38,694 nucleotides of DNA from the IMG/VR virus record IMGVR_UViG_2541047880_000004, positions 1 to 38,694 of that record; one strand, written 5' to 3'. Made by a program: the position numbers and the translations under genes. This document shows positions 1-12,224 of the stretch, piece by piece; the stretch's first letter is position 1, and each line of letters begins with the position of its first letter. Source of the stretch: a virus. Its lineage: Duplodnaviria; Heunggongvirae; Uroviricota; Caudoviricetes. Under the pieces are notes generated by a model. It was not told where the DNA came from, ran no database searches, and worked only from the letters and a program-made list of their open reading frames with translations.

Positions 1-1806
1 TTATAGGTTTTCGAGTTTGTTCAATCTTTGCTCTAACCCCTCTATCCTTGAAAATGCAACATCTATAGCCTTTGTAACAAACGGTATAACCTGTTCGTAG
101 GCAATTGTTTTTACATCGCATCCATTGTTTACTAGATGATCTTGATATATACCACAGTCAATTCCAAGTCGATCAAGTAATTCTTTAACTTGCTGTGCAA
201 GATACCCGGCATGTTCTCTTTTCCTTTTTCTACTGCCATCTTTTTCATGTTGATGAATTCTAGTTTCAAAAATCGGATTGCCATTAGAATCATCACCAAT
301 TTTTACATTGTATTCTTCTATATAATCATCACGAAAATCCCACTTATAAAAATATGGGATTATTCCACGGACGAATGATACAGCAAGTTCTCCGTCTATT
401 ATTCGTTTATCTGCTTTATCACGCTCATCAGACCGAGTTTGCACCGTACCATATACATAAACTGTCTGAGAAGAATTTCCTAACTGAATCTCATGATCTC
501 CACCAACTCTGGCACGGTAGCCTAAAGCTACACAATTTAATTTCTCTTTTGCAGGTGTCCCATCAATCAAAAACCTACCAGCTTGATGTCCAAGATATAC
601 TAATTGGGTTCCAGTAGTCTCACTATCTCCTGACGCTGCACCAACAAAAACATTATCACTTCCTGTTGTTAAATTAAAGCCGGAAGCCCTACCAATAAGA
701 ACTGAATCATTCATTTTTGTTGCTTTATATCCTGCTTGCATCCCACAAAAAACAACACCATTTAATCCATTCTGTGACCATGCAGCTTGATACCCTATAG
801 CAACAATATTATTGGGAGATTCCCCATATGAAGACAAACCAAGAGAAGCCTCACGTCCTAGTGCAACGTTTCCAGAACCATCCACATTTCTAAATAAGGC
901 AGAGCGACCTGCAGCAAGATTATTACCGCCAGTTCCCGTCTCAGCACCAGAGAATGCTCCTATATAGGTATTACCACCACCAGTTGAGTTATTTTGCATT
1001 GCTGCTTGACCGACAGCAACGTTATCTCTTCCTGTTGTTGTTTGTGACCCAGCATCCGTACCAACTGAAACATTTCTCTCTCCTGATGTTAATAGTTTGC
1101 CAGCGTTATAACCAACCACTACATTATAACTACCGGTTTTATAGTTGGCATAAGAAGAACTTTGAGCGTAAATAAAAATATTATAACTACCTGTAGTTAA
1201 CAGTGCTCCAGCCTCATGTCCAAGTAGAACATTGCGCTGTCCTGTTGTAAGGCTTGCACCGGCTCGTCTACCAATACCAGTATTTTCCGCACCAACAGCC
1301 TCATCTGACTCGTTACCTATAATTGATGATCCTGCTCCAACTCCGAAAAAAGCATTATTTTTCGCATATTCATTAGAAGAAAATGCATCAATTCCCCATA
1401 CCGTATTACTTGGGTCAGCATAACCAGGAGAATTTTCACCAGAAAAATTGGTTAATTCCTGCCTTAACTGATCTGGAGCATATTTCATTACATTTGGGAA
1501 ATAGTGCTGCTGAGAGCCATACGCATCAAAAATCGCCATTGAGTGATTTTTTATAGTCGCAAACTTACCGAATTGACCATTCAATACAGGTTGTCCAGCT
1601 TGACTTATTTTTATTGGTTGAGAAACCTTAATATATTTTCCATTCTCATTCTCAAAATAAACATCCACTTGATTATCTGGATTAGTCGGATCGGTATCAG
1701 GCTTCCCGATATAAATGCTTCCATTCGATACTGATTTAAATGTTCTTGACATTGTGAACAATTGATTAGGCATGGAAACTATAATGTTAGGTATAATGTC
1801 TGTCAT
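1..1806 (-). CDS. Tailspike/tail fibre protein: P22 gp9-type N-terminal head-binding domain, Gly-rich repeat body, C-terminal intramolecular chaperone-like domain
   Basis: N-terminus MTDIIPNIIVSMPNQLFT...KYAPDQLRQ resembles P22/Sf6 tailspike head-binding domain; body shows repeated G-x-x-A-G-x-x-x-T-T-G-x-x-N units; C-terminal ...RSDERDKADKRIIDG...YFYKWD... resembles S74-type chaperone; stop codon at 1..3. Confidence 0.85.
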   Translation of the reverse strand: MTDIIPNIIVSMPNQLFTMSRTFKSVSNGSIYIGKPDTDPTNPDNQVDVYFENENGKYIKVSQPIKISQAGQPVLNGQFGKFATIKNHSMAIFDAYGSQQHYFPNVMKYAPDQLRQELTNFSGENSPGYADPSNTVWGIDAFSSNEYAKNNAFFGVGAGSSIIGNESDEAVGAENTGIGRRAGASLTTGQRNVLLGHEAGALLTTGSYNIFIYAQSSSYANYKTGSYNVVVGYNAGKLLTSGERNVSVGTDAGSQTTTGRDNVAVGQAAMQNNSTGGGNTYIGAFSGAETGTGGNNLAAGRSALFRNVDGSGNVALGREASLGLSSYGESPNNIVAIGYQAAWSQNGLNGVVFCGMQAGYKATKMNDSVLIGRASGFNLTTGSDNVFVGAASGDSETTGTQLVYLGHQAGRFLIDGTPAKEKLNCVALGYRARVGGDHEIQLGNSSQTVYVYGTVQTRSDERDKADKRIIDGELAVSFVRGIIPYFYKWDFRDDYIEEYNVKIGDDSNGNPIFETRIHQHEKDGSRKRKREHAGYLAQQVKELLDRLGIDCGIYQDHLVNNGCDVKTIAYEQVIPFVTKAIDVAFSRIEGLEQRLNKLENL

Positions 1807-1954
1807 TTAATTTGCTCCAGATAGAAGGAATCGCCGCAGCATTGCCGCAGTGATGCATTTTTAATCAAAAAAAATACGACCACCGTGGTCTTATTGAGGA
1901 TGAAACCAGCAGATAATAAGATGCCGATCCACTCACAAAAGCGAGGCATCAAGA

Positions 1955-2206
1955 ATGGGAAGAGATGACCCGCAATTTAATCTGCGGCTACCTTACGAAT
2001 TAAAGGAAAAACTAAAACAGCGAGCCAAATCCAATGGCCGCTCTCTTAATTCAGAATTAGTTCAGATAGTGACTGATGCTGTATCAAGGCCATCCAAAAT
2101 TTCAGGCTATCGAGACGATGCGGAACGCATCGCTGATGAGCAGTCAGAGCTTGTTAAGAAGATGGTGTTTGATACGCTGAAGGATTTGTACAAAAAACCC
2201 ACCTGA
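1955..2206 (+). CDS. mnt: Mnt repressor (ribbon-helix-helix)
   Basis: 83 aa; MGRDDPQFNLRLPYELKEKLKQRAKSNGRS...DAERIADEQSELVKKMVFDTLKDLYKK closely matches remembered P22 Mnt. Confidence 0.85.
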   Translation: MGRDDPQFNLRLPYELKEKLKQRAKSNGRSLNSELVQIVTDAVSRPSKISGYRDDAERIADEQSELVKKMVFDTLKDLYKKPT

Positions 2207-2221
2207 TGGTGGGTTCCATTT
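2192..2221. terminator. Candidate bidirectional rho-independent terminator between mnt and the minus-strand lipoprotein gene
   Basis: AAAAAA-CCCACC-tgat-GGTGGG-TTCCATTT; A-run on one side and T-rich run on the other; overlaps the mnt stop codon. Confidence 0.5.
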
Positions 2222-2222
2222 A

Positions 2223-2642
2223 CTAGTCTTGCTTTGTGGACGGTATAAGGGATGCATTTGCCTCTTTAGGCTTCAAGGTATACATCCCGCCATTAAATGG
2301 ATCTACAGCAAGCCAACCAATTAACCCACCAAACACAAGGTTTCCACCAATATACCAACCATTAGCATTGGCTTTGATTGGCAGGGTAACTGGTTCGTAC
2401 CCATCCTTCTCCATAGTGATCTGGTAGCTCTTTTTGCCAAAATAACTACCATCTGACTTGGCAAGAGTTACTCCTTGCGGGGTCTTACCTTGCGCAACAA
2501 TCACGCCTGATTCGTCTTTTACCTTAAAGCTCGCGCCGGAAGGATTGCTGTTCACTTGCACAAGCTGTGTTTCGTCACCAACAATAGTTGCGCACCCAGA
2601 TAACAATATAGCGCCAGCAACGACGCCGATAATCCTCTTCAT
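2223..2642 (-). CDS. Lipoprotein of unknown function (moron)
   Basis: 139 aa; N-terminal signal peptide with lipobox LLSGC; no homologue recognised. Confidence 0.7.
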   Translation of the reverse strand: MKRIIGVVAGAILLSGCATIVGDETQLVQVNSNPSGASFKVKDESGVIVAQGKTPQGVTLAKSDGSYFGKKSYQITMEKDGYEPVTLPIKANANGWYIGGNLVFGGLIGWLAVDPFNGGMYTLKPKEANASLIPSTKQD

Positions 2643-2776
2643 ATTACTTTCCGTTTTGTTAGAATCAGAAAGATCTTAATAATAAAAAGTATTTTCGTGA
2701 AGATATTGTCGATTGAGTTAATAACTCATTTACACCCAACAGTGCCATGATGGCAAAGATAAGGAGAGTTAATCAT

Positions 2777-3262
2777 ATGAAAAAATCACTGTTAATTATC
2801 CCGCTTCTGCTGGCAGGGTGTGCAAAGGTTAGCGACTATCAGGCAAATTGCGAACAACGCTATCCAAAGCTTAGCGATATGGCTAATTGCCTTGATGCTA
2901 GCGTGAAGAACGACTCACGCATGGCATCAGCACCAACACCTAAGTTATATGTCCTTGCTGCGAAGATGCTCGGGCAAGGTGTCGATGATGGCAAGATAAG
3001 TGACGCGCAGGCAAGACTTGAGCTTCAGAATCTTTATGTTCAACTACAAAGCCAAGAACAAGCCCAACAAATAGCGCAAAGCCAAGCATTCCAGCAGGCT
3101 TTATTGAATTATCAGGCTGTAAACACAATGCAAGCGATCGAGCAAAAAGCGAGACAGCCTGTTATAACTCAACCCTATCCAACACGAGTTGACACTTACA
3201 CAAACTGCAATTCAGGGTTTGGAAATACAGTCACATGCAACAGTAGCAGTAACATCAGATAA
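2777..3262 (+). CDS. Lipoprotein of unknown function (moron), Gln-rich C-terminal half
   Basis: Start taken at MKKSLLIIPLLLAGC (lipobox LAGC) with AAGGAGAG RBS 8 nt upstream; the ORF track begins 30 nt earlier at 2747. Confidence 0.65.
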   Translation: MKKSLLIIPLLLAGCAKVSDYQANCEQRYPKLSDMANCLDASVKNDSRMASAPTPKLYVLAAKMLGQGVDDGKISDAQARLELQNLYVQLQSQEQAQQIAQSQAFQQALLNYQAVNTMQAIEQKARQPVITQPYPTRVDTYTNCNSGFGNTVTCNSSSNIR

Positions 3263-3352
3263 CAATCAGCAAAGGTATCGCCTATGCAGAGGGATACGAT
3301 AAACCTCGCGTTCTACATATTTGGTTTTTGCACGTTCCTGGTGTTTGAAAAG

Positions 3353-5350
3353 CTATTCTGACAACGCATCAGACTTAGCCCCCTGCGTCATAGCGTTAAT
3401 TGCCTTTTGTGCCTGCTGCATGGCTTTCTCAAACGCTGTTGATCCGCGTGGGGTGTTTGCCATTCGGAGCATTGCATTTCTGAATGGCTCGCTCTCATAG
3501 GCGCGAGTAAGAAGTCCGTAGCTTACTGCTGCGCCAGTTGTCGCCGGGTTCATTGCCGTCCCATACCCAATAATGAACGGGATAGTTTGCTGCCCTGTGG
3601 GTGTTGTTACTGCCGCTTTTGCAGCCTGCTGCGTGGATTGCAGGTAGTTTTTTAATCCTTTCAGATAAGCAGCGTCCTGCCCCTTAAATGTGATGCCAGT
3701 CTGGTTTTGCAGGATGTTAAGCTGCCGAAGGAACTGGTCAGGGGATCCGCCAGATTTCTCCATCGCCTTTCCAATGATGCCATTGCGCATTTGCGCCCTG
3801 CCAACACGACCAACTGAGTTATACAGCGTCTTAATTTCCGATTTGTTCTTGCTGAATAGCATGTTGTTGACGACTTCCGGCGTCAGGTCGCCTTTCATGA
3901 GAACATTCTTCAGCCTGGTATTCTTTAGTTTCGCCGCTTCGTCAGCGTAGACGGCATTGGCCTGCTGATATTTACGGAGAGTATCGTTGCCAAGATTCTG
4001 ACCAATGGCACCATTGATATCGTCAGTCATTGCCTTGTAAACGCGCTGAATGGCAGCATCGGAACGGTTTGGTAACACTGGTCGCTCACCCTTCACGTCC
4101 ATTCTGAACTGGCTGCGCAGGTCGCTTAATTGCTTCAAATCCAGATTTACCGGACCATCAGGTCCAGCATTGCGAACAAGCTCATCACGATATGACTGAA
4201 GTTTTGAAATTGTCTCGTTATCAGCTACCTTACCAAGCTTCTGCAGATTAGATATCTCAGTATCAATCTGCTGAATTGCTCGCGCAGGCTGGATATTGAC
4301 TCCCGCCATTGCATTCTGAACCTGCTCAAGACGATTCCATGCAGCACGACGAATTCCTGATGTTTTCGCTTTAAGGCTGTCAATAACAACCGCTGGATCA
4401 TACTCACCGAATTTATCAGCAAATCTCTGCACCAACTGGCTTCTCGCTTCCTGTTGCGTTGCTCTCATTCCGCTTGTGCCAGCCAGAGGGATATTTTCTG
4501 CTGTAGTCTGCGCCATTTTTCCGACGCGGGAAGTTGGTTGTAACAGGTCTGTGGTGTGCAGAGGAACTCCTTCACGCTCTGCAAATCTGATAGCCTGCTG
4601 CGCTTCTGGCGCGATAGCACCACGAACGCCACGATAAGCAGCACCTAATCCACGTCCGGCAGCGTTAATAGCACCGCCAGCAAGTACACCAACGCCTAAA
4701 TCGGTGGCGAGTGCTTCCGCATCATCTTTCGCACTATTTGCAGCAAGTGATCCAACTGCGTTTTCTGCTAGAAGGCGAGTTGCCCCCTGAGCAATTCGAC
4801 CAGCAAGTGTTGGTGCCTGTACCGCCGCTCTCTCAACGCCAGCAGGAGTGAGATAAGGCAATGCTTCAGCAAATACCCTTCCCTCTGTCGTTTGTGGAGT
4901 CAGCGCACCTTGCTGAAGGCCAAAGTCCTGCTCTAATCCCTGCGTTGTTACTCGTGGTGCTGGTTGATATGTACCATCGCCAATACCGAGTTTACCGCCA
5001 GCCCAAGCCGCCGCGCTTGTTACAGCATCGGCAACTGATGCAGGTATGTTTGCCACGTTCACGCCAGCCTGCACCAGTCCGCGACCAGTCTCTTTTACTG
5101 CTTCACCAAGATCAGACATAAATCCACTTTGCTGTGGTTGTTGCTGTGCTACTGGTTGTTGTGTCTCCACTGGCTGCACAGATGGCAATGGATAGGCAGC
5201 ATAGAAAGCTTGCTTAGCCTGCTCTGCATTTTCTCCGGCTTGCGGGGCCACGACTTCATTGAAGTATTGCTCCTGAGCCTGCGCTTTTTGTTCTGGTGCT
5301 AACGCCTGATACTGTGGAGAGGCGATAACATCTTTCCATGCTTTAGCCAT
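3353..5350 (-). CDS. Ejection (injection) protein, P22 gp16-like
   Basis: 665 aa; position and size in conserved gp4-gp10-gp26-gp14-gp7-gp20-gp16 order. Confidence 0.8.
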   Translation of the reverse strand: MAKAWKDVIASPQYQALAPEQKAQAQEQYFNEVVAPQAGENAEQAKQAFYAAYPLPSVQPVETQQPVAQQQPQQSGFMSDLGEAVKETGRGLVQAGVNVANIPASVADAVTSAAAWAGGKLGIGDGTYQPAPRVTTQGLEQDFGLQQGALTPQTTEGRVFAEALPYLTPAGVERAAVQAPTLAGRIAQGATRLLAENAVGSLAANSAKDDAEALATDLGVGVLAGGAINAAGRGLGAAYRGVRGAIAPEAQQAIRFAEREGVPLHTTDLLQPTSRVGKMAQTTAENIPLAGTSGMRATQQEARSQLVQRFADKFGEYDPAVVIDSLKAKTSGIRRAAWNRLEQVQNAMAGVNIQPARAIQQIDTEISNLQKLGKVADNETISKLQSYRDELVRNAGPDGPVNLDLKQLSDLRSQFRMDVKGERPVLPNRSDAAIQRVYKAMTDDINGAIGQNLGNDTLRKYQQANAVYADEAAKLKNTRLKNVLMKGDLTPEVVNNMLFSKNKSEIKTLYNSVGRVGRAQMRNGIIGKAMEKSGGSPDQFLRQLNILQNQTGITFKGQDAAYLKGLKNYLQSTQQAAKAAVTTPTGQQTIPFIIGYGTAMNPATTGAAVSYGLLTRAYESEPFRNAMLRMANTPRGSTAFEKAMQQAQKAINAMTQGAKSDALSE

Positions 5351-10176: not shown

Positions 10177-10677
10177 TTATTCGCTCCCGTTATCACAAGG
10201 TTCCTTTCGGTGGAAGTAATTCCAACCGTTCCACTTCGCCAACTGATTACCGCTACCAACAGGCATACGGTTTGGATAACCGGACTTACATTTAGCGGCT
10301 TTTGCTCTGTCCATTGCAGACAGTTTGACGAGTCGCTCTTTCCCGTATCTGGCAGTGGTTATAAGTTTTGCTGACGATTCCAGCGCATAATCCGGAGCAA
10401 TGCGGCAGGCAAGGTTGAAAATGACGGCATTGATAGCGTTATTTGATAAACCGTGCTCATCGCCCGGATCCGGAGCGACATCTGCATCAGCAAAAATGTA
10501 GCCAACGTTGATACCAGGTGACACATCACCGCCAAGCCATTCAGCCATCATCATTTCAAGGTCGTTGACGCCGTCTTCCATAGACTGCGGTTCGACATCG
10601 GTTAACGTGGCATTTGATGCAACACCGAGCTTACGTAATGCTGCAAGGACTAAATCACCCTTCGTTGTCAGGTTCAT
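10177..10677 (-). CDS. Tail accessory / head completion protein, P22 gp4-like
   Basis: 166 aa, same length as P22 gp4; synteny. Confidence 0.8.
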
Positions 10678-10885
10678 CTGCTGCCGCCTTAGGTTTTCGA
10701 CCAGGCTTTTTACGCTGTTTTTCTTCTAGCTCTGGCTCTGCAACATCCTTCAAAAGGTCATCAGGATGTGAAAACCAGCCAGCATCCAGATATTCCTGAA
10801 GCTCTTCGGCTTTCACGATTTCAAAGTCGTATCCAACGCCTTTCCATTTCTTCATGTCTCCATGACGAAAGATCATGTGTGTCAT
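10655..10885 (-). CDS. Small hypothetical protein between coat and gp4
   Basis: 76 aa from internal Met [16 protein letters not shown]... of the 136-aa ORF; GGAGA RBS directly after the coat terminator hairpin. Confidence 0.45.
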
Positions 10886-10894
10886 GCTTGTCTC

Positions 10895-10920
10895 CAGATA
10901 AAAAGGGAGCCGAAGCTCCC
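10895..10920 (-). terminator. Candidate rho-independent terminator downstream of coat gene
   Basis: On minus strand GGGAGCTTCGGCTCCC followed by TTTTTATCT. Confidence 0.5.
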
Positions 10921-10928
10921 TCTGGTTA

Positions 10929-12224
10929 TCACGCGGTCTGATTAGGCAGACCAACACCAATTGCCTCTGGTCGTACAGCACATGCTGAATACCACACAGC
11001 AATACGGCACTTACCAGACAGAGTGTTGATATCACCCTGCGTTGCGAAGATGCCGTTAACACCAATACCAGGAATGCTGAAGGAAGACGTTTTCATGCCA
11101 GCAAACAGTTCATGGGTTACCGGGATCGGCTGAGACAGCAGACGGATTGAGTCATCAGCCCAGAACACGTTAGCGGTGGTTGTTGCCACGTTCAGAACGT
11201 TTACCGGAGTGGTATCAGCAAGAGAGGTGTTTACGTTAGCGTAAGCCTTCTCTTCTTTTGTCAGTGACGCGTCATCCAGCGCAATCGGCTTCGGCGTGAT
11301 TTCGATGTGAGTACTATCGATCACTCGGGTGATTGAGAAAGTAGCATCATCAGTCAGCACGTTCTTCGCCATCTGAGATAGGAATTTCACACCAGTGAAG
11401 CTGATTTTGTCGCCGCGCTTAAATCCGGTGGTAGATGATACGGTCACCGTTGCAACACGGTTGTCGACGTTCTCTTTGTTACCATCGGTATCAAGGGTGT
11501 ATGCCTGCGGCTTAAACTTCTGCGCACCAGAAACAGTTACACCAGTAGCGGTTGACTTGGTAACTGCCGGAAGTTTCGGTGAGCGAAGAATTTCATCAAA
11601 GCCAGCAATCTGACGCTGAATAGTACCGTTACGATACGCTTCTTCAGGAACGCGCCCAAAGATGTCACCATCTACCAGGTTGCGGCCTGCTTTGCGGTAA
11701 TCGTCAGGGTTCAGGAAGTAACTGATGCCCATATCGCGGTTTAGCTCACGGGAGAACATCAGGCGCTCTGCATCAGACACAAAATCCCAGCCAGACAGGC
11801 CAGTAGATGGACCAATTGCGCGGGTATCGTGAACAACAAGCGAGCCCATTTCAGTTGCCTGTTTGGCAATCGCTGACTCAATGTTATTCGCCAGTTTTTT
11901 GGCGGATGCCTGGATGCGGCGACGGTAAGAACGCTCATCACGCAGGTCATCTGCACGAAGCTCGAAAAAATCGTTATCCGGGTCGCCAATGTTGCATTTC
12001 ACGGAGAGTTCCAGAATCCCGGTTGCGTTGTCAGTTAAATCCCAGCCAGTCTGGGTTGGCGCTTCCTGCTCAACAGGCATCCACACGGTGTTGCTTGAAC
12101 GCTGCATGGATTCTGCCGGAGGGGTGTATTTTGTCACTTTGGACGCCATTGGCGTCAGGTTCTGGACGGTTTCGATGATTTCATCCAGAGCATACGTGAC
12201 CAGTTGACCTTCATTTAATGCCAT
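10929..12224 (-). CDS. Major coat protein, P22 gp5-like
   Basis: 431 aa; [20 protein letters not shown]... and most of the length closely match remembered P22 coat. Confidence 0.92.

Follow-up and report, generated by a model that had tools for sequence, protein, structure and literature searches.

Two lipoprotein genes between mnt and gene 16

The window analysed here is the full 38,694 nucleotides (nt) of a Caudoviricetes record in IMG/VR (IMGVR_UViG_2541047880_000004), and it carries two small lipoprotein genes, which we call lipo1 and lipo2, where phage P22 carries sieA. According to the open reading frame (ORF) list and the sequence, lipo1 (2223..2642, minus strand) encodes a 139-amino-acid (aa) lipoprotein precursor that begins MKRIIGVVAGAILLSGC and has the lipobox LLSGC, with Cys17 followed by Ala at +2. 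Lipo2 (2777..3262, plus strand), read in the same way, encodes a 161-aa precursor that begins MKKSLLIIPLLLAGC, with the lipobox LLAGC, Cys15 and likewise Ala at +2. Their left neighbour is mnt (1955..2206, plus strand), an Arc-family repressor gene with Arc and Repressor_Mnt domains; their right neighbour encodes a P22 gp16-type DNA ejection protein (3353..5350, minus strand; phrog_770, E 5e-239) and is the final late-operon gene ahead of the moron region. Lipo2 and the gp16 gene are convergent, with a 90-base-pair (bp) gap. A first-pass annotation of the window had described two lipobox proteins of these lengths on opposite strands between mnt and gp16, a 134-bp AT-rich spacer and a Gln-rich C-terminal half of the larger protein, all of which is borne out: the divergent control region between the genes (2643..2776, 134 bp) has a GC content of 30.6%, vs. 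47.7% for the whole window, and 15 Gln fall within residues 84-127 of lipo2. It was also right to place sieA and hkcC of P22 at this site, as P22 carries sieA, orf59a and mnt there and hkcC is listed in the published survey (Villafane et al., 2008; PMC2629481).

Lipo1 is followed on its own strand by an intrinsic terminator (2192..2217, minus strand), a CCCACC/GGUGGG core stem and then six U residues. The hairpin has a folding energy of −18 kcal/mol (z −4.5), and none of 200 shuffled sequences was equally stable. On the plus strand the same element comes after mnt, and it is annotated as a terminator in phage epsilon34; no terminator is evident after lipo2. An Rfam scan of 1500-3600 returned nothing real.

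The 1.6-kb block around the two genes is 97-99% identical to phage Gally, to vB_EcoP-720R6 and to prophages of 25 complete Escherichia coli genomes. Gally is the P22-like prophage of the adherent-invasive E. coli (AIEC) strain LF82 (PMC9928086), in which 2223-3262 of the window corresponds to 1032854-1033893. The lipo1 protein is 100% identical to GALLYPH_14 and lipo2 98.8% identical to GALLYPH_13, and the spacer is the same base for base. The records differ on where lipo2 starts, the Gally GenBank entry using an upstream ATG (2747 in the window, giving 171 aa) and RefSeq using ATG 2777 (161 aa). We favour ATG 2777 because of the ribosome-binding site AGGAG at 2764-2768, 8 nt ahead of it, the RefSeq annotation, and the homologues that begin at MKK.

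The tailspike gene (1-1806), assigned by domain search, has a P22 head-binding domain that is 64-68% identical to the common type of E. coli P22-like phages, and a C-terminal Peptidase_S74 (intramolecular chaperone) domain. The 799-aa tailspike of Gally is different, though the remaining block is 97% identical, and hence the receptor-binding module has been exchanged. The mnt gene of the window is an orphan: neither arc nor ant lies between mnt and the tailspike gene (1807-1954), as in Gally, and no arc or ant partner is found in the window. In LF82, mnt is up about 40-fold in macrophages, and its deletion had no phenotype (PMC9928086).

Predicted exported lipoproteins of two function-unknown families

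Both proteins have a PROSITE PS51257-type signal, with N-terminal basic residues, a hydrophobic stretch and the pattern [LVI][ASTVI][GAS]C within the first ~35 residues; the sites are MKRIIGVVAGAILLSG/C in lipo1 and MKKSLLIIPLLLAG/C in lipo2. The lipobox is conserved in 32 of 35 lipo1 homologues and in all 30 lipo2 homologues. Residue +2 is Ala in every one of the 32 lipobox-positive lipo1 homologues, and Ala, Val or Thr among those of lipo2; Asp occurs there in none. Enterobacterales lipoproteins that lack Asp after the lipidated Cys are sorted to the outer membrane by the Lol system (the "+2 rule"). Lol sorting would therefore be expected to bring both proteins to the outer membrane, in its inner leaflet and on the periplasmic side. 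They are predicted to be lipoproteins processed by Sec, Lgt and LspA, with mature sizes of 123 aa (lipo1) and 147 aa (lipo2). By hydropathy, lipo2 has no transmembrane (TM) segment beyond its signal peptide, and the top 19-residue hydrophobic window of each protein is the signal peptide itself; segment 95-113 of lipo1 averages ~1.3.

Lipo2 has four further conserved Cys in a family that diverges to 25% identity, C25 and C38 being invariant and C144 and C154 present in at least 90% of the sequences of a wide alignment. Their conservation implies an oxidising compartment, and suggests two disulfides and hence a periplasmic location. Both are genuine genes under strong purifying selection, with dN/dS of 0.03-0.05 against relatives ~93% identical in DNA.

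The first-pass annotation recognised neither family. There is indeed no named family, but the families themselves are known: lipo1 matches PHROG 6823 full-length (E 6e-86) and lipo2 matches PHROG 6067 full-length (E 2e-109). These memberships are true, although the labels carry no function. Lipo1 is moreover 97.8% identical to gp15 of epsilon34, whose gene 15 was described in 2008 as similar to bacterial genes with no assigned function. No Pfam match above threshold was obtained for either protein, NCBIfam gave nothing usable (matches to GspK and LEPBI_I2678 lay far under the cut-offs), PADLOC-DB 2.0 returned no defence model at E ≤ 1, and queries of the literature by accession, locus tag and PHROG number retrieved no paper on lipo1 or lipo2. 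PEGA (PF08308) was considered for lipo1 and rejected, as it scored 17.6 bits vs. a gathering cut-off of 20.8 and matched 4 of 35 homologues at E < 0.01.

The structure prediction and fold search that the first-pass annotation had proposed yielded a modelled fold for each protein but no function or family. In the AlphaFold2 model of lipo1 (mean predicted local distance difference test score, pLDDT, 75.7), residues ~25-93 are modelled at pLDDT >90 as a transthyretin/PEGA-like beta-sandwich, and the last strands (121-131) rejoin it; the predicted fold is of the seven-stranded type. Residues 95-121, GWYIGGNLVFGGLIGWLAVDPFNGGMY, are conserved more strongly than any other stretch in the family. They are rich in Gly and moderately hydrophobic, the model being of low confidence here, and we infer that they may be a glycine-zipper loop inserting into a membrane or a partner. 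The model of lipo2 is mediocre (pLDDT 61.8). It has a helical domain (~18-100, pLDDT 73-83) that carries the Cys25/Cys38 pair; a long Gln-rich helix then runs to ~125, and the Cys144/Cys154 pair sits in a small C-terminal hairpin of low confidence. Among lipo2 homologues the C-terminal module is swapped while the N-terminal domain is kept, as would suit a variable "tip". Sequence searches for solved relatives gave weak beta-sandwich matches for lipo1 and none for lipo2; in the profile search of the Protein Data Bank (PDB), which included Llp, no chain matched either protein at E ≤ 1 outside the beta-sandwich region of lipo1. For lipo1, fold searches retrieved beta-sandwiches of a generic kind and, in BFVD, a single unnamed viral relative; for lipo2, with its mediocre model, they retrieved generic helical bundles. 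No fold or family match assigns a function to either protein.

Transcription in the repressed prophage

The spacer had been expected to hold divergent promoters. The best consensus match for lipo2 is TTCATA (2638-2643), 16 bp and TGnTAGAAT (ending at 2665), and that for lipo1 is TTCACG (2701-2696), 17 bp and TAAGAT (2678-2673), with GGAAAG (2652-2647) as the candidate ribosome-binding site of lipo1. These are consensus-level matches, no more frequent in the spacer than in shuffled sequence; RNA sequencing (RNA-seq) across the identical Gally spacer suggests promoter activity.

The expression data are the strand-specific RNA-seq of LF82 given as log2(fpkm+5), where fpkm is fragments per kilobase per million, in the S1 Table of Misson et al. 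(2023; PMC9928086); columns B1/B6 were taken as the cultures in Dulbecco's modified Eagle medium (DMEM) named in the table caption. GALLYPH_14 (lipo1) stands at 6.2/4.8 in stationary lysogeny broth (LB), 9.8-10.5 in B1/B6, 11.0 at 1 h in macrophages and 9.4-9.5 at 6 h, and GALLYPH_13 (lipo2) at 6.3/6.0, 7.9-8.2, 10.3 and 8.5-8.7, respectively. The C2 repressor gives 8.9-9.9, 10.5-11.0, 12.0 and 11.2-11.3 in the same conditions, and the gp16 homologue remains at 3.6-4.1 in every one (PMC9928086). In condensed form, lipo1 and lipo2 stand at 5.5 and 6.1 in overnight LB, 10.0-10.4 and 8.0-8.1 in DMEM, and 9.4 and 8.6 at 6 h in macrophages, with C2 at 9.4 in LB and between 9.4 and 12.0 over all conditions. 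In DMEM and macrophages the two genes are thus among the most transcribed of Gally, ~20- to 150-fold above the neighbouring late genes, while structural genes are at background. Since they are high while gp16 is silent, transcripts appear to begin between lipo1 and lipo2, and in lysogens rather than by late read-through or in a lytic subpopulation. Lipo1 and lipo2 are therefore transcribed in the repressed prophage independently of lytic genes, as shown for Gally in LF82 and not for the window's own host. Lack of expression in lysogens, which the first-pass annotation had named as a result that would count against its proposal, is not what the near-identical Gally genes display.

The authors of that study scored morons from stationary LB alone, with a cut-off of 5x over the median, and stated that Gally has none; they also reported that "the five rightmost genes" of Gally are up 6- to 40-fold in macrophages (PMC9928086). 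By coordinates, both lipoprotein genes fall among these five, and in stationary LB they reach 3.3x and 4.5x over background, below the 5x cut-off. The contrast between LB and DMEM may be mere growth phase.

These data also bear on a lytic role, in which the proteins would mask receptors on lysing cells, as T5 Llp does, or modulate lysis or the envelope late in infection. Lipo1 lies on the late-operon strand, between gene 16 and the tailspike gene, where Q-antiterminated transcripts must read through it in sense (PMC2629481), and its homologues in siphovirus prophages are co-oriented with tail genes. Lipo2, however, is on the strand opposite to the late operon, lipo1 ends in a terminator of its own, and both genes are high while late genes are at background. 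P22-like phages bind O-antigen through tailspikes with receptor-destroying activity, which already limits their loss on debris. We regard a lytic accessory role as improbable. Transcripts of the Gally tailspike gene, GALLYPH_16, rise in the lysogen in parallel with lipo1 (log2 3.9 to 7.8); the two genes are co-oriented, and read-through that starts at the lipo1 promoter and passes the terminator at 2192-2217 could express the tailspike from the prophage.

Independent cassettes of the ant moron

The region between gene 16 and gene 9 of P22-like phages, the "ant moron", varies greatly and plays no part in morphogenesis (Villafane et al., 2008; PMC2629481). Two samples of IMG/VR loci were compared: a lipo-selected set of 160 loci fetched by lipo1 or lipo2, of which the ORFs of 138 unique regions were clustered, and an unbiased set of 80 loci chosen by the common tailspike head-binding domain alone, which gave 76 unique regions. 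More than 40 gene arrangements occur among the 76 (49 architecture strings if crude size-labelled unknown ORFs are included). Lipo2 is present in 19 of the 76, lipo1 in 12 and both in five, so most carriers have one gene alone. Epsilon34 has lipo1 beside an hkcB-like gene and no lipo2, whereas lipo2 is the only one of the two in Salmonella phage VSe13, Proteus phage Brookers, E. coli 97-3250 and NCCP15648, and prophages of Serratia, Morganella, Providencia and Tatumella. A count over 5426 complete E. coli genomes gives 124 with lipo1 and 186 with lipo2, always on the chromosome, and 25 with the whole block. In close relatives, then, each gene is present or absent at the same position, which is the behaviour of a moron.

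Lipo1 adjoins the 3' end of mnt and diverges from lipo2 or from any of three unrelated cassettes (clusters c7, c11/hkcB-like and c13). Upstream of lipo1, epsilon34 and the window share merely ~40 bp, and the end of this shared sequence puts the joint of the lipo1 cassette just past the ribosome-binding site. The first-pass annotation had called the genes a pair, and this part does not stand in the functional sense, each being found far more often alone than with the other. A two-component envelope system, co-regulated from a shared divergent promoter region, would account for the adjacent divergent genes, their common AT-rich spacer, their joint rise in LF82 and the conservation of the whole block at 97-99% in 25 E. 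coli genomes and two phages. It is largely refuted by the distribution just described, by the equal pairing of lipo1 with three unrelated cassettes, by its occurrence alone in siphovirus prophages, and by the replacement of its upstream region past ~40 bp in epsilon34, and we give it very little credence.

Lipo1 also travels outside P22-like phages. Lambdoid siphovirus prophages carry homologues 68-78% identical, which stand, in E. coli (ED1a included) and Proteus, between the tail chaperone T gene and the tape-measure gene and, in Pseudescherichia, between tail genes I and J; one more is in a prophage remnant. These sites are the two annotated moron slots of HK97, that of gp15 before the tape measure and that of gp22/gp23 between I and J. 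In E. coli HK97-like prophages that carry a lipo1 homologue before the tape measure (loci L006, L008 and L010), a porin gene (Porin_1/Porin_4, ~10261-11424) lies between tail genes M and L as a second envelope moron in the tail cluster.

It might be supposed, from the location of the genes between those for the ejection protein and the tailspike, that they encode structural or assembly components of the virion, a role that the first-pass annotation had itself named as one that would overturn its proposal. This is hardly credible. P22 has neither gene, most P22-like phages whose morphogenetic genes are syntenic lack one or both, a lipobox implies export by host Sec and Lol, the genes are expressed in the repressed prophage, and lipo1 occupies known moron sites of unrelated siphovirus tail clusters.

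Taken together, lipo1 and lipo2 are, with a probability of about 0.85, two mutually independent moron cassettes, situated in the ant moron of a P22-like (Lederbergvirus) prophage of the Gally type and encoding lipoproteins that are probably located in the outer membrane and are transcribed from the spacer in a condition-dependent manner.

Lipo2 and the sieA slot

In P22, sieA is convergent with gene 16 across a 23-bp gap, has its own promoter and is oriented as mnt. Lipo2 is placed and oriented likewise, ~60-100 bp away from gp16. In the lipo-selected set it lies directly against gp16, convergently, in 82 regions; the exception is locus L037, with a 112-aa four-TM ORF in between. In the 76 unbiased regions, the commonest gene beside gp16 is lipo2 (19), followed by c7 (signal peptide, phrog_2651; 15), mnt with no cassette (9), SieA-like genes (7), hkcB-like genes (N-terminal TM, phrog_5962; 6) and c13 (N-terminal TM, phrog_8100; 3), and in the rest there are assorted small ORFs, several with 1-3 TM segments; three further regions of the unbiased survey are without any moron. 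By BLASTP assignment, lipo2 and SieA occur together in none of these 76 regions. In a published survey, sieA was carried by 22 of 66 P22-like phages (PMC10883804).

Most genes at the gp16 junction encode a signal peptide or a membrane anchor, and their PHROGs are all of unknown function. Examples (loci L031, L003, L123, L033, L212 and L237) include a 129-aa signal-peptide protein (phrog_2651) and 75-80-aa proteins with 2-3 TM segments, together with a 107-aa hkcB-like coiled-coil protein with an N-terminal TM segment (phrog_5962) and a 109-aa N-terminal-TM protein (phrog_8100). These small slot proteins, SieA and lipo2 seem to be interchangeable alleles of a single locus.

At 33% identity or more, lipo2 is almost confined to P22-like prophages, and the slot is kept down to that level: a metagenome locus (L302) has the order mnt, lipo2-like gene, gp16, gp20, gp7. 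More distant relatives are not confined to the slot; they comprise 252 cluster representatives, and all those checked are unnamed and have no Pfam match. A viral-contig scan with this distant subfamily found nothing, and a metagenome scan gave 18 loci, mostly short. In Pectobacterium peruviense (L038, 8001-8411), a 136-aa lipo2 homologue without the C-terminal Cys hairpin lies outside any prophage. To one side its neighbours resemble fadR, nhaB and dsbB, and to the other minCDE, as judged from the size, N-terminal sequence and number of hydrophobic segments of these ORFs. The homologue either has been domesticated or hints at a cellular ancestor.

A single lipo2 allele (at least 90% identical) stands beside at least eight types of gp16, of 536-911 aa. 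Gp16 (3353-5350 in the window; compared in loci L039-L198) is extremely mosaic, and the types beside this one allele are less than 85% identical. The idea that lipo2 is matched to the ejection proteins of its own phage was dropped, as it shows no co-variation with the resident gp16 among these types.

Comparison with known prophage envelope proteins

SieA is the nearest positional counterpart of lipo2. SieA, a superinfection-exclusion protein (types A-C; Leavitt et al., 2024; PMC10883804), is found in the same slot, convergent with gene 16, in the mnt orientation and in a subset of P22-like prophages, as is lipo2. Both are expressed from the prophage, and both belong to the envelope, SieA by location and lipo2 by prediction. 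They differ in that SieA is a polytopic inner-membrane protein of 164 aa with four hydrophobic segments (by a crude hydropathy scan) and a cytoplasmic FxRYPxEAxxFNK motif, whereas lipo2 has a lipobox, a predicted outer-membrane anchor and no sequence similarity to SieA. Membership of the SieA family was accordingly rejected for both proteins, neither being SieA-like in topology or containing the FxRYPxEAxxFNK motif.

Cor of phages phi80, N15 and HK022 and Llp of T5 are small outer-membrane lipoproteins that block FhuA, and the first-pass annotation had drawn an analogy with them. Lipo1 and lipo2 are likewise small phage lipoproteins, predicted to be sorted to the outer membrane. The resemblance does not extend to homology: the mature proteins (123 and 147 aa) are larger and have other folds, and the matches to Cor (PHROG 1119), which cover residues 1-20 (E 0.0034) and 1-29 (E 0.08), are restricted to the signal peptide and were rejected. 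HK97 gp15, reportedly a 62-aa inner-membrane protein, shares its insertion site with lipo1 homologues, as do the gp22/gp23 morons, but has no sequence relation to lipo1. It is a known exclusion protein (Cumby et al., 2012, as cited in PMC10883804).

In Streptococcus phage TP-J34, the prophage lipoprotein Ltp prevents DNA injection: it binds the tape measure protein, a component of the DNA-delivery apparatus of the incoming phage. It would be the closest mechanistic model for the action proposed for lipo2. It differs in its Gram-positive host, surface exposure and helix-turn-helix (HTH)-repeat fold, and has no sequence relation to lipo2. Bor/Iss and Lom of lambda are prophage-expressed outer-membrane proteins from morons near tail genes, and in this respect are models for a role in host fitness; Pfam at E ≤ 0.1 gave no match of lipo1 or lipo2 to the Bor, Lom/Ail or TraT families. 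By the tests run, neither protein appears to belong to the SieA, Cor, Llp, Ltp, Bor, Lom or TraT families, and any action "like" that of known prophage envelope morons would be so by analogy only.

A possible role in superinfection exclusion

The reading that we prefer is that lipo1 and lipo2 alter the envelope of the lysogen so that superinfection is resisted; we put its probability at roughly 0.35-0.4. Lipo2 is proposed as an exclusion factor because of its specificity for P22-like phages and its exact coincidence with the sieA slot, orientation and convergent gene 16 junction. It would be an alternative to SieA, specific to P22-like phages. SieA acts from the inner membrane, against the gp20/gp16 conduit. 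Lipo2 would act from the outer-membrane or periplasmic side on DNA delivery by incoming P22-like phages, and its predicted geometry, an N-terminal lipid anchor, a helical domain, a stalk formed by a helix of ~50 residues and a disulfide-bonded variable tip, might fit such a task. Lipo1 would be a general lambdoid moron whose beta-sandwich and glycine-zipper-like loop bind to, or insert beside, a conserved outer-membrane component, and may in this way mask a receptor or stiffen the envelope. A bolder version, in which lipo2 founds a new class of outer-membrane-anchored periplasmic exclusion lipoproteins that block, from the outer-membrane side, assembly of or passage through the trans-envelope ejection-protein conduit of short-tailed P22-like phages, taking the place of the inner-membrane SieA in those E. 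coli-type P22-like prophages, the larger share, that are without sieA, and in which lipo1 is a second exclusion lipoprotein of broader range that podovirus and siphovirus prophages have in common, is speculative and, in our judgement, unlikely.

Several observations weigh against these proposals. Position (slot, orientation and exclusivity with sieA) is the sole support for a SieA-like function of lipo2. Sharing of the slot may reflect the sole insertion-tolerant site of P22-like late operons (PMC2629481), and exclusivity between lipo2 and sieA is to be expected where a slot holds one cassette. Neither family has been linked to a phenotype, nor does PADLOC have a model for them. Distant lipo2 relatives occur on other integrase-bearing islands of low-GC bacteria, and one in the Pectobacterium core chromosome; longer lipo1 homologues (168-185 aa) are chromosomal, non-prophage genes of other gamma-proteobacteria. 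Purifying selection and the presence of one allele with at least eight gp16 types oppose an arms race with ejection proteins, and would be equally consistent with a conserved target in the host. The rise in DMEM and macrophages fits host adaptation at least as well as exclusion, and promoter regulation in LF82 may differ from that in the window's host.

Many of these points would be met by lysogenic conversion for host fitness, in which the envelope lipoproteins help the lysogen under host-associated or envelope stress, as Bor/Iss or Lom of lambda do. From stationary LB to DMEM, transcripts of both genes increase 4- to 30-fold, and 1 h after uptake of LF82 by macrophages they approach repressor levels; the carriers include clinical, Shiga toxin-producing (STEC) and avian pathogenic (APEC) E. 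coli isolates. Chromosomal homologues of lipo1 outside prophages point the same way, as does the conserved host target suggested by purifying selection without gp16 co-variation. On the other hand, deletion of Gally left the survival of LF82 in macrophages unchanged (PMC9928086), and the accessible portions of a CRISPR interference (CRISPRi) gut-colonisation screen that discusses Gally genes make no mention of lipo1 or lipo2. Nor does host fitness explain the restriction of lipo2 to P22-like phages and the sieA slot, and the difference between LB and DMEM may be growth phase alone. We consider this explanation possible, though somewhat doubtful.

Implications for P22-like lysogens

For P22-like lysogens that lack sieA, the slot adjacent to gp16 offers a short list of candidates for what protects them, and one that suits the plating assays already established for SieA. 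The published statement that Gally has no morons (PMC9928086) is to be revisited in view of the near-repressor levels of both transcripts in DMEM and macrophages. AIEC, STEC and APEC strains are among the 2-3% of complete E. coli genomes in which lipo1 and lipo2 are present, and if neither protein excludes phages, they would be candidates for condition-induced envelope remodelling in a Crohn's-associated strain.

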